From IMG/VR virus record IMGVR_UViG_3300037851_000518, positions 1 to 46,708 of that record: a stretch of 46,708 nucleotides of DNA. The stretch is one strand, 5' to 3'. Positions 13,278-17,192 of this stretch are shown here, in pieces. The translations under genes were made by a program, and so were the position numbers. Within the stretch, counting starts at the first letter, position 1; each line of letters begins with the position of its first letter. Under the pieces are notes generated by a model. The model did no database searches and was not told the origin of the DNA. It worked only from the letters and a program-made list of their open reading frames with translations. The DNA is from a virus (lineage: Duplodnaviria > Caudoviricetes).

Positions 13278-13457
13278 ATGAAAGCAACGATCACAATCGA
13301 TTTCGAGGTGGACGGCGTGTGCCCGTCGGATGAAGTGCTTCAGGACGCATTCTGGAAGCTGATTCGCGCCACCGGATACATCGGCAGTGCGGAGGTCGAT
13401 GGGACAGATGCGTGGGGAATCGAGGTTGGAAACGTAACGCTTTTGGTGTTCCAATGA
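13278..13457 (+). CDS. Hypothetical protein, 59 aa
   Basis: RBS GAGGTG, MKATITIDFEV. Confidence 0.65.
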   Translation: MKATITIDFEVDGVCPSDEVLQDAFWKLIRATGYIGSAEVDGTDAWGIEVGNVTLLVFQ

Positions 13458-13556
13458 ATGTCCTCGGAATAGACCCCGCAAACGGCAGCAGAAAGGAAAG
13501 ACGATGGAAAACGATAAAACACCCGCTGCCGGTAGCTCTGCGCCGGCTGGTTCAGC
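13457..13556 (-). mobile_element. Degenerate attC-like site enclosing the start of gene 13504
   Basis: Minus strand GCTGAAC-N5-GGCGCAGA; inner stem CGGCAGC 13483-89 / GCTGCCG 13525-31. Confidence 0.55.
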
Positions 13557-13770
13557 AATTAAGTTTGCTCTGGAAAACCGCGTTGAGCTTCGCATAAACG
13601 CTCCGCACGGTAACAGGATTCGGCTCCAAGCAATACAGGGCGCATACCCATACAAAAGAAAGACGGAATATCTTGGAACCGGAGCGTCGGCGCTGGAAAT
13701 CGATGAGGCAATACGGAGAATCGCAACCAACGTATTGCTGATCGGTCCCATTCAGACGGCGGGCGGATAA
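13504..13770 (+). CDS. Hypothetical cassette-like protein
   Basis: RBS GAAAGGA; N-terminal GSSAPAGS encoded by the attC-like arm. Confidence 0.7.
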   Translation: MENDKTPAAGSSAPAGSAIKFALENRVELRINAPHGNRIRLQAIQGAYPYKRKTEYLGTGASALEIDEAIRRIATNVLLIGPIQTAGG

Positions 13771-13778
13771 GTGAACGC

Positions 13779-13810
13779 GAAACCTGAAACTGGAAATTTG
13801 AAACTTGAAA
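13779..13810 (+). repeat. Intergenic heptamer tandem repeat GAAACCT/GAAACTG/GAAATTT/GAAACTT
   Basis: Read directly from the sequence. Confidence 0.8.
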
Positions 13811-13819
13811 GGGACGTGA

Positions 13820-13987
13820 ATGAAGAAGACGCCACCAAATAAACCGAAGCCGGAGCTGTGCGAATTCCCGGACTGCCCAAAGAAACCCGTGACGGTGCTG
13901 GGCGGGTACTGGTTCTGCGCAGAACATGGCGACCGGAGTTATGAGAAGGGTTCGCCGCAAAAAGGCGCAGAAGACGCAAAACATTAA
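13820..13987 (+). CDS. Small Zn-finger protein, 55 aa (not in ORF track)
   Basis: Manual translation MKKTPPNKPKPELCEFPDCPKKPVTVLGGYWFCAEH... Confidence 0.6.
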   Translation: MKKTPPNKPKPELCEFPDCPKKPVTVLGGYWFCAEHGDRSYEKGSPQKGAEDAKH

Positions 13988-14001
13988 GGGGATTGAAACC
14001 A

Positions 14002-14445
14002 ATGAAAACGCTCATGCTATCAAAAACATTTCCAGCCGGACATCCTTGGCCTGGAAATAAGACCCTCTTCCTTGAACAGGCGATGAGCGGTCGCAAGCTC
14101 CACACCATCAGGAAGAATATGAAGGGCCGTTACAAAGCCGGCGATGTGGTGGAGATCCGGCAATGGAGCGGAAAACCGTACTGCTCGAAACAGGATCGAA
14201 CAGGGCTCCTGTTCCGCATCGGTGTTGAGCCGGTCACGCTCGTGTTGCGCGCCGGCGAACTCATCGCATCAGTCAACGGAATTCCTGTTTCACCCAAACG
14301 CCTGGCTGCGAACGACGGCCTCACTCTCGACAACTTTATCGACTGGTTTTTCCCCGGCCGCAAACCCGGAACCTTCACTGGCGACATTATCCACTTCACC
14401 TCATTCCGGTACGCCCCCGGCCAGACGGCAGAAAGGAAGCAATAA
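14002..14445 (+). CDS. ASCH/PUA-like protein
   Basis: GRKLHTIR, RQWSGKPY, LAANDGL..F..WF. Confidence 0.75.
   Translation: MKTLMLSKTFPAGHPWPGNKTLFLEQAMSGRKLHTIRKNMKGRYKAGDVVEIRQWSGKPYCSKQDRTGLLFRIGVEPVTLVLRAGELIASVNGIPVSPKRLAANDGLTLDNFIDWFFPGRKPGTFTGDIIHFTSFRYAPGQTAERKQ
14410..14438 (-). mobile_element. attC-like half site plus RBS
   Basis: GCCCCCGGCCAGAC at 14413-26 is identical to 15107-20; minus strand TCTGGCC-GGGGGC-GTA. Confidence 0.5.
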
Positions 14446-14743
14446 TGATCAGTAGTTTATCGAATGAACGTATTGTTGACGAGTGGATTGCAGGCGGAGA
14501 AACATTTGGCTGTGCCGCGACTGCGGAAAGTTCTTCCAGCCGTCTGAAATTGAACGGTTGGAAGGCGATATTGATCCTGTGAGTCTTTCAAGGATGAAGC
14601 CAAGCGCAGCCGTTCAGGCTCCAGAAAATCAGGAAGGGATAGCACCATGAACCCGGACAATACGGCAAGGCTAAAGAATTTGCGCAGGCGAGTGCAGAGT
14701 TCTCAAAATCGCTCTGTATTGGAAAAGCAAAGGAGGCTGGCAA

Positions 14744-14890
14744 ATGAAGGTGCATGTGTTTGGCGACGAAATCAAGATCGTAGACGACTTTGGGCGGGAC
14801 ATCTTGATCGACAGAGATCAAGCGTCGGAGCTTCGCGACCTGCTCGCCGAAAAAATGAAAAAAGGCGGGCTGACGCGGATGGTGGTGTGA
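14744..14890 (+). CDS. Hypothetical protein, 48 aa (not in ORF track)
   Basis: RBS AAGGAGG; MKVHVFGDEIKIVDDFGRDILID... Confidence 0.65.
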   Translation: MKVHVFGDEIKIVDDFGRDILIDRDQASELRDLLAEKMKKGGLTRMVV

Positions 14891-14893
14891 ATT

Positions 14894-15157
14894 ATGAAAA
14901 CGAAAGATCATATCAAAAAAGCCGTACACGCTCACTCGACCTTTACTACATGGGCTTGCGTGAAGGAGTTGCTGGAAAGCGGAAATTTCTACTCGTCGAA
15001 GACAGACAGAGACAGACGGCGGGTTTTAAAAATTGTTAAAGAGGCAATGCGAAAAGAATTGGCGGAGTATGATGTTGAGGCAGAGATGGTTCTTTGTACC
15101 TCCAAAGCCCCCGGCCAGACCGAACTATCAAATCGAAAGGAACTGATACATGACTGA
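14894..15157 (+). CDS. Hypothetical protein
   Basis: 87 aa; ends APGQT..RK like gene 14002. Confidence 0.7.
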   Translation: MKTKDHIKKAVHAHSTFTTWACVKELLESGNFYSSKTDRDRRRVLKIVKEAMRKELAEYDVEAEMVLCTSKAPGQTELSNRKELIHD

Positions 15158-15199
15158 TACTAAACAAAACGCATGTAGCTCTGCGCCGAACGGTTCGCT
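15100..15199 (-). mobile_element. Near-complete attC-like site with degenerate R' box
   Basis: Minus strand AGCGAAC-N5-GGCGCAGA...TCTGGCC-N6-TTTGGAG, with one extra G in the 8-nt L box. Confidence 0.65.
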
Positions 15200-15428
15200 C
15201 CCGCCCATTGAGATTGTTGCGTGGGTTTTCGCACACGTTGCACAGCATCTTCGAGAGGGCGGATCGTATCGTCATCTCATTTACGACCGCATGGGATACG
15301 GGCCTGACGCATATCTACCATTGTGTGAGGCCGGGGGTCTGGAAATTAGCAATGCGTTTCACGATTTGGCCGTATTTCAAAAAGCGAACAGCGTATCGGA
15401 CGAATCGGCGCGGCCTAAACAGGATTAA
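15150..15428 (+). CDS. Hypothetical cassette-like protein
   Basis: GGSYRHLIYDRMGYGPDAY..GGLEISN; body bounded by GTTCGCT / AGCGAAC. Confidence 0.8.
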   Translation: MTDTKQNACSSAPNGSLPPIEIVAWVFAHVAQHLREGGSYRHLIYDRMGYGPDAYLPLCEAGGLEISNAFHDLAVFQKANSVSDESARPKQD

Positions 15429-15552
15429 CGGCTTGCCCGTCTCGCTTCCGGTAGCTCCTGCACTCTTTGGGCCTGCACAGTTCGCACGCCACGCGTATCG
15501 GGCAGTGCTCATAAAACCGGCAGGATTCACAATCAGCTTTCACCGCGTTCAT
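15415..15552 (-). CDS. Small Cys-rich protein, 45 aa
   Basis: MNAVKADCESCRFYEHC..CELC..EC; G-rich RBS. Confidence 0.55.
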   Translation of the reverse strand: MNAVKADCESCRFYEHCPIRVACELCRPKECRSYRKRDGQAVNPV

Positions 15553-15604: not shown

Positions 15605-16432
15605 CTACCCCGCCCACTCCGTCGCCTTGTCATCGAGGCTGTCCAGCGACGCGCTGACCGCCTTGCGATATTCTGAAATCTTGTGATCTTCGACCGACAC
15701 CGCCTCGCCGACCCGCAGGCCGGATAGCGTGACGTGCGCCGCCGCAATCCGCGCCGCCCTCTGTGTCGTCTGCCAGAAAGAACCCATGCCGCGCTTGATC
15801 TGCCCGTTCAGGGCGACAACCGCCACGCCGGAACGGATGTGCCGGTATCCCATTAGGTACGGCGGAAGGCAAGGCACGGCATCCGCCTTGTTGCGGAGCT
15901 GAATCAGCTTCCCGGCAAACTGACTGTCGAATGAGTCCGCAAACGCCTTGTCGCCCGGACGCGGAGCACCGGCTGTAACGCATAGCTCCCACGGAATACC
16001 CTCCTGCGCCAGCTTCATCGCCAATTGATAACAAACGGCCCCGAAAAGAGAGTGTCCCGTCAGGTAGATCGGACGGGCAGACTGATTGAACTCATAGCGA
16101 ATAGCTCTCACAAGCGGCTTGCGAACCATGAGGAAATGCTCAAGGAAGCCGGCTGCGACCCGCCCTCCGATAAAATCCATCTTTTTGAAAAATTTCGCGT
16201 TCTGCTTCCAGTCTTTCGGATCGTTGCTTCCGGCTCCGGAAACCACGATGAAATCTTTGTGCATGAACAACACAGCCCGCGCATTGCCGACAACGATTTC
16301 TTGAGAGCGCAACTGATTCCTCGCCATGAACTCTTCGACCTTTGGACGGTCGCACGGCAAATACGCCGCCTCCGCGCAGCCCAAAAGAAACTCCACAAAC
16401 TTTGCCAGTTCCCTGCTGTCATTCGCGTCCAT
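15605..16432 (-). CDS. Lipase class 3 family alpha/beta hydrolase
   Basis: DW..N, V..GF, TGHSLFGA, GAPR.GD..F, N..DAVP.LP, YRH, DH.I..Y. Confidence 0.9.
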   Translation of the reverse strand: MDANDSRELAKFVEFLLGCAEAAYLPCDRPKVEEFMARNQLRSQEIVVGNARAVLFMHKDFIVVSGAGSNDPKDWKQNAKFFKKMDFIGGRVAAGFLEHFLMVRKPLVRAIRYEFNQSARPIYLTGHSLFGAVCYQLAMKLAQEGIPWELCVTAGAPRPGDKAFADSFDSQFAGKLIQLRNKADAVPCLPPYLMGYRHIRSGVAVVALNGQIKRGMGSFWQTTQRAARIAAAHVTLSGLRVGEAVSVEDHKISEYRKAVSASLDSLDDKATEWAG

Positions 16433-17164: not shown

Positions 17165-17192
17165 GTTTCAGGTTTCAAGTTTCAGGTTTCAG
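17165..17192 (-). repeat. Intergenic heptamer tandem repeat (GTTTCAR)4
   Basis: Same sense-strand unit as 13779-13810. Confidence 0.85.

Follow-up and report, generated by a model that had tools for sequence, protein, structure and literature searches.

The attC site of an integron cassette recombines in the form of a folded bottom strand, with the cut falling between A and C of RYYYAAC (PMC7439510, PMC5027507). Canonical cassettes have the site layout R''-5-L''(8)...L'(7)-6-R' with one extrahelical base in L'', are exchanged at the AAC of R', and have complementary ends (Nivina et al. 2016, PMC5027507). Orientation of the gene towards Pc is described as essential, and a wrong orientation arising through top-strand recombination flips gene and site together (PMC5027507). 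For phages, Qi et al. (2023, PMC9892861) describe clusters of attC sites lacking integron integrases (CALINs), in which attC sites lie between small accessory genes of phages without intI; five of six phage attC sites recombine with IntI1. The same source describes complete phage integrons, Va_90-11-286_p16 and M16-3, with intI, attI and cassettes in a prophage, as captured host integron pieces. Phage infection can supply single-stranded attC (PMC8946536), and synthetic protein-coding attC sites are translated while keeping the recombination geometry (Nivina et al. 2020, PMC7439510). The locus considered here, a row of small genes separated by attC-like sites, lies in a complete 46.7-kb virus record from a freshwater metagenome (IMGVR_UViG_3300037851_000518; 46,708 nucleotides, here called the window), which is flanked by direct terminal repeats. 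Replication genes occupy the plus strand up to about 15.4 kb and structural genes the minus strand, and the cassette-like locus is at the far end of the plus-strand gene row.

The reading held with considerable confidence is that the locus consists of worn-down integron-type cassettes with genes opposite to the normal strand, likely inserted in the early operon by an external IntI-type integrase and now probably mostly locked. It shares with canonical cassettes the box layout with its single extrahelical L'' base, the exchange at the AAC of R' and the complementary ends, and the same arm pair recurs in a bacterial-type array (L107). Unlike in canonical cassettes, the gene in the window runs against its own site, with the exchange still at R'; C takes the place of the typical G as first extrahelical base. 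Like the phage CALINs, the window has attC-type sites between small accessory genes and no intI. TJE1, the main example in PMC9892861, was checked here and has three sites; its genes occupy the attC top strand and start after the site, whereas the window genes lie on the bottom strand, start in one site and end in the next. The synthetic attC sites are engineered linkers, whereas the window sites are natural and include a ribosome-binding site, a start, a stop and variable tails. The complete phage integrons resemble two elements found here, locus L109 and provirus G001, in which the antisense genes point the same way as intI; no intI lies in the window itself. A CALIN combines two or more detectable attC sites close together with the absence of intI nearby. 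The window agrees in lacking intI, but in place of such sites it has one complete decayed site, two halves and one remnant, none of which passes a strict finder; with no site intact, the locus would probably not count as a CALIN. The literature coverage was incomplete, with most subscription papers outside it, and held no account of antisense phage cassettes with start and stop inside the sites. The window appears to show, in decayed form, an inverted, frame-locked cassette design of which no description was found in print. As a separate observation, the reading frames of orf1 and orf2 in TJE1 (L135) each extend into the gene's own attC site (244-293 and 1016-1075) and stop there, on the top strand.

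Two repeats mark the locus, both located as the preliminary description of the window had claimed. GTAGCTCTGCGCCG-NNN-GGTTC is found at 13532-13553 and 15175-15196; with up to three mismatches it has two matches against 0.01 expected, and none of 100 shuffles has two, a figure that is too favourable because the pattern was taken from those two copies. GCCCCCGGCCAGAC is exact at 14413-14426 and 15107-15120, and with three mismatches it has six matches against 3.37 expected. The minus strand from 15199 to 15100 (site C) reads AGCGAAC-CGTTC-GGCGCAGA-64 nucleotides-TCTGGCC-GGGGGC-TTTGGAG. It has the five-nucleotide spacer, L''(8) and L'(7) boxes pairing at 7/7 positions and one extrahelical base (C on the bottom strand, position 4 of L''); its R'' retains AAC, not RYYY. 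As proposed earlier, the site is antisense to the genes and has a ribosome-binding site and ATG inside, both in its loop. A two-arm profile was trained on 12 sites known only as neighbours in other arrays, three of which, however, have the GGCGCAG arm and so belong to the arm family of site C. This profile places 15100-15199 at the top of the window with a score of 36.6, the next place reaching 21.0 and the maximum over 40 simulated genomes being 27.8. The body of gp15150 is bounded by complementary cores, R' GTTCGCT (15193-99) and R'' AGCGAAC (15383-89), at 7/7 positions, in agreement with the earlier claim; the cut position used to delimit its unit is taken from PMC7439510. For gp13504 the ends are uncertain: an in-frame GTGAAC (13771-76), one codon past the stop, is complementary to R'' at 5/7 bases and may be the far end of a gp13504 cassette.

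Each gene has its start in a site loop, passes out through the AAC core of the following site and stops after a few more codons. The AAC, or its decayed form, is always read as one codon, and relatives swap tails exactly there. gp14894 has three relatives that are 77-80% identical. Residues 1-71 are identical at 55-69 of 71 positions across all six pairs of the four proteins, and from residue 72 on the tails are unrelated, with 0-4 identities over 8-16 residues. Residue 71 is Asn in all three relatives and Lys in the window (AAA, 15104-06), a break consistent with a decayed AAC and an exchange directly after it. The earlier suggestion that the R' GTT has decayed thus holds at 15104-06. It is one of three readings at 14410-12, where the GTA is, on the coding strand, a TAC that encodes a conserved Tyr: all three viral relatives of gp14002 examined end F..[YF]RY-stop, so this TAC is the family's last codon. 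A point change, a three-base loss from TAT-AAC (the L106 junction) and docking at a non-standard core all fit. Residues 18-72 of gp15150 form a widespread small domain, with 395 cluster representatives at E<=0.001. Its relatives P0013 and P0162 are identical at 77 of 81 residues through QNAN and at 2 of 12 thereafter, and the window reads QKAN followed by its own tail, so the homology breaks at the core as the preliminary description had anticipated. Gene starts and stops inside attC-like sites, together with tails that change at the predicted cut, suggest that phages likely trade accessory genes by way of an integron-type enzyme.

The same site family occurs elsewhere. A full-geometry pattern with intact GTT matched 17 metagenome loci, and a slightly wider pattern matched nine viral loci; seven of each were judged genuine by eye, duplicates included, the other ten metagenome matches being set aside as chance or not followed and the viral matches L124 and L127 also being set aside. 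The genuine matches have the L''/L' arms of site C with an intact GTT. One of them, L107, is a normal bacterial-type array of three sites with these arms and genes on the top strand, so the arm pair does occur in a true cassette array; in the others the genes are antisense to the sites. Exchange is visible at the DNA level in two cases from this family, and at the protein level for the gp14894 and gp15150 families. L106 and L112 have one shared unit with different neighbours at both ends, the change coming after AAC each time, and L109 and L120 have one shared site with differing sequence after G|TT. R' and the next R'' are complementary at 7/7 positions in eight of nine adjacent pairs and at 6/7 in the ninth, three of 12 pairs having been omitted where a missed site seemed to intervene. 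Of 20 non-bacterial copies of the site, 18 of them distinct, 17 have an antisense frame of at least 54 codons in which AAC is read as Asn, 18 contain the stop of the antisense frame, and 16 contain an ATG that opens at least 47 codons past the site. Site C obeys this codon rule, and the antisense Asn frame, the in-site stop and the in-site ATG are absent from all three L107 sites. GTT is present in all 23 reference copies, partly by selection; their L-box pairing was not counted as covariation because the finder selected for pairing. Patterns of the arm only matched 1 and 34 viral loci and 47 genome loci, none with attC geometry, and were rejected as chance. In another phage record of 38.6 kb without an integrase, L125:3642-6190 has at least five antisense sites of mixed families, and the starts there cross R'' in a codon phase unlike that of the window.

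On the integron reading, the coding strand would be the attC bottom strand, folding when single-stranded and being cut between AA and C of R'. The moved unit would comprise the ribosome-binding site, ATG, N-terminus and body, with tail and stop supplied by the neighbour. With the cut always in the same codon phase, the unit would pick up a short tail and a stop from its landing site, and because the next gene starts in the same loop the operon would stay translationally coupled. IntI acting in trans would insert the units, and the sites would then decay, fixing the genes in this phage. The preliminary description had the mobile unit as a bare gene body and the site as the source of both translation signals and protein termini. 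L106 and L112 speak against a bare body, as their unit holds the ribosome-binding site, ATG and N-terminus too; the start signals travel with the cassette, and what the neighbouring site gives is the tail and the stop.

Several results weigh against this reading. The attC geometry claimed earlier is confined to one complete site: both arms are present at site C only, and sites A and B are halves. In place of a GTT core in R' to pair with AAC, the window has TTT at 15106-04 and GTA at 14412-10, and the TAC at 14410-12 is at odds with a GTT cut. All four genes lie on the bottom strand, not on the top strand upstream of attC. Folding, suggested earlier as a check, gave no support, neither strand of 15095-15204 folding better than shuffles (z 0.30 and -0.33). 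The bottom strand of site C has z -0.44, with P(L pairs) 0.40 and P(R core) 0.00, and fails as a stable hairpin; its inner stem is disrupted and both L boxes are intact. Among the reference sites 18 of 22 lie at z <= -1.8, several having been chosen with an energy filter. Rfam gave no match for the site. With relaxed geometry (one core mismatch) six distinct places in the window fit, so that geometry alone is weak evidence, and no place fits once GTT is required exactly and a stem filter is applied. The absence of intI from the window, noted earlier, was borne out by a six-frame search with PF00589 for a tyrosine recombinase, which had no match, and by tblastn with two IntI-type proteins for an integrase or remnant, which gave nothing below E 0.85. 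No full-length integrase was found in six of the seven viral records bearing these sites. The breakpoints in the relatives of gp14894 and gp15150 are read at the protein level only. None of 20 viral loci (17 of the gp15150 family and three of the gp14002 family) has a site that passes the finder used here, and in the gp15150 family our filter finds only 3 of 157 members with site-like ends on both sides, so most of the family is not cassette-borne. As 34 of the 157 also start within eight residues of the domain, the gp15150 body appears to be a complete domain that can stand alone and travels in cassettes only in some cases. In its working the locus resembles an integron cassette array, yet it fails on intact core, stable fold and gene orientation.

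Gene exchange between short linker repeats by homologous or microhomology recombination, with no integrase involved, is an unlikely alternative. The phage encodes a Gp2.5-like annealing/single-stranded DNA-binding protein and an exonuclease, the window has no integrase, and the half sites A and B together with the 13/14 copy at 15444-57 show that non-integrase rearrangement has taken place here. Shared linkers would be expected to leave the opposite pattern from the one seen, however, in which identity stops at the AAC codon and the sequence is unrelated beyond it; the arms also match the normal array L107, and the cassette ends are complementary. More doubtful still is that site C is active, with an enzyme that tolerates TTT and GTA cores, and that gp14002 joined site B at a non-standard core at its natural end. 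The junction at 14410-12 does fall on the last codon of the gp14002 family, as if a site had docked at the gene end, and the L boxes are intact, with the pairing probability of 0.40 given above. Against this stand the Asn at the core in all gp14894 relatives and the GTT in every reference copy (with the selection already mentioned), the disrupted inner stem, and a TAC that is equally explained by a point change or by three-base loss. No rearranged form, joint or variant at the locus was seen in one sequencing run, probably that of the source sample, in which 13480-13777 was without coverage, a gap that carries no weight; the array looks locked, not active.

That the sites are RNA-level hairpins for translation coupling, or chance duplicates whose attC look is a coincidence, is very improbable and already largely refuted. 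Such an origin would suit the ribosome-binding sites, starts and stops within the sites, the insignificant folding, the six places that fit the relaxed geometry, and the chance matches of the simple arm patterns in 34 viral and 47 genome loci. It does not suit a two-arm score well above the simulated maximum, exact breakpoints in two unrelated gene families, or the same arms in arrays beside IntI genes.

For the worn-down cassettes favoured here, the source of the enzyme would lie outside the window. L109 encodes an integron integrase (TIGR02249, 274.4 against a cut-off of 265) and has both intI and attI. Its intI is downstream of, and co-oriented with, the antisense genes, and an entry core just before intI has seven bases complementary to R'' of the next site detected. 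In provirus G001 an IntI-like gene scores 247.4 bits, below the cut-off, and has a layout like that of L109; the two integrases are 30% identical. Both elements (L109:25-5784 and G001:C1:12570-24162; L122, L131), in which the IntI-type gene lies beside antisense cassettes, also carry a phrog_310 transposase, of a family that is presumably Mu-like. In G001 a virion morphogenesis gene directly follows intI. The two look like transposable prophages with their own integron. The genes would face intI because intI ends the transcribed row and only genes so placed would be transcribed, judging by these two related elements. The preliminary description named a host integrase as the agent, which is unproven. 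The arm was not found as attC in any of the 47 matches from a scan of species genomes, nor in any of 401 Planctomycetota genomes, and the IntI-type genes beside this site family are in the two transposase-bearing elements. No named host with the site family was found, which also weighs against the cassette reading. A host integron is equally possible, because L107 is a normal array with these arms, so that the chances of a host integron and of a resident transposable prophage as the source are about even. In the window, the position that intI occupies in the related elements is taken by a class 3 lipase gene (15605-16432), which lies on the minus strand and points towards the end of the cassette row.

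It has long been asked how phages gain and swap small early-operon genes at exact borders. Site-specific exchange at attC hairpins with translation signals of their own would be a testable answer, and L106, L109, L120, L128 and L129 offer intact sites and an integrase for testing it. It is possible, though somewhat short of probable, that phages keep their own pool of inverted, frame-locked cassettes: Mu-like prophages with co-oriented intI would build them, integrase-less phages would acquire them in trans in the same host, and each exchange would renew the C-terminal tail and re-couple translation to the next gene. Such a pool would be the natural counterpart of the engineered protein-coding attC site. 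When proteins of this kind are compared, the first 15-20 and last 10-17 residues are to be read as recombination-site sequence, not family sequence. The window adds an end stage, in which sites decay once the genes are fixed and would be missed by attC finders. It is of value for its exact breakpoints and because it led to members of the same family with intact sites and to phage-borne integrases. The features of the locus are listed in Table 1.

Table 1. Sites, genes and inferred unit of the cassette-like locus, with positions in the window.
Feature	Position	Strand	Details
Short frame start MNVLGIDP	13454..13477	+	overlaps stop of upstream gene; sits at expected L'/R' arm of site A
Site A, half attC-type	13483..13556	-	inner stem CGGCAGC (13483-89)/GCTGCCG (13525-31), 7 bp
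Site A, read on plus strand		+	ribosome-binding site GAAAGGAA 13491-98, ATG 13504, L'' 13537-44, R'' GTTCAGC 13550-56
gp13504	13504..13770	+	88 residues; N-terminus MENDKTPAAGSSAPAGS encoded by site A
gp14002	14002..14445	+	147 residues; phrog_8581; tail APGQTAERKQ from site B
Site B, half attC-type	14410..14439	-	TAC at core position, spacer GCCCCC, L' GGCCAGA (14419-25)
Site B, read on plus strand		+	after L': CGGCAG, ribosome-binding site GAAAGGAA
gp14894	14894..15157	+	87 residues; residues 1-71 common to three relatives; tail APGQTELSNRKELIHD from site C
Site C, complete	15100..15199	-	R'' AGCGAAC 15199-93, 5 nucleotides, L'' GGCGCAGA 15187-80, 64-nucleotide loop
Site C, loop on other strand		+	ribosome-binding site 15135-42, ATG 15150, stop 15155-57
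Site C, second arm		-	L' TCTGGCC 15119-13, 6 nucleotides, R' TTTGGAG 15106-00; GTT decayed to TTT
gp15150	15150..15428	+	92 residues; begins with MTDTKQNACSSAPNGSL (from site C) and ends with SVSDESARPKQD (from site D)
Inferred cassette unit	15106..15388	-	283 bp between two predicted cuts; ribosome-binding site, ATG, gp15150 body
Site D, decayed	15383..15464	-	intact core AGCGAAC (15383-89 on plus strand), then GCTTCCGGTAGCTC (15444-57)

The incomplete sites differ in what they have lost. In site A, L' and R' are unrecognisable, and the other arm is replaced by the short frame, whose start may resemble the first residues of RuvC-type resolvases; the frame had no PHROG match at E<=10. No L''/R'' arm was recognised downstream of site B. 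The GCTTCCGGTAGCTC of site D is identical to part of site A at 13 of 14 positions, and the site has no pairing boxes (P of L-box pairs 0.01). At 14483-14650 a frame that looks start-less ends in PSAAVQAPENQEGIAP-stop, resembling a tail derived from a site but with AGC instead of AAC, and overlaps the next ATG; this is possibly a fifth decayed site. GTACCTCC stands just before the core codon at 15096-15106 and occurs twice in the unrelated L125 array before AAC cores (at about 3640 and 4200), in different frames, a recurrence that may be chance or target preference.

No relatives of gp13504 were found, and a search for related loci among viruses gave no relatives of gp15150 alone, of gp13504 or of gp14894. 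Atlas matches of gp15150 were all below 0.9, PADLOC gave no match for five genes, and no DNA match to the window was found among annotated phages. Directly after the possible end of the gp13504 cassette begins a GAAACCTGAAACTGGAAATTTGAAAC element (13779-13810), which has an inverted copy at 17165-17190 and is also present on deeper contigs of the same run. Positions 1-880 hold about 30 tandem copies of a 24-nucleotide unit and are open as a frame of 244 residues (58-792) with eight-residue repeats, for which neither Pfam nor PHROG had a match. A palindrome-like motif, GGTCTATA...TAGACC, lies between genes at 784, 3092, 10101, 45188, 46128 and 46554 and is likely an operator.

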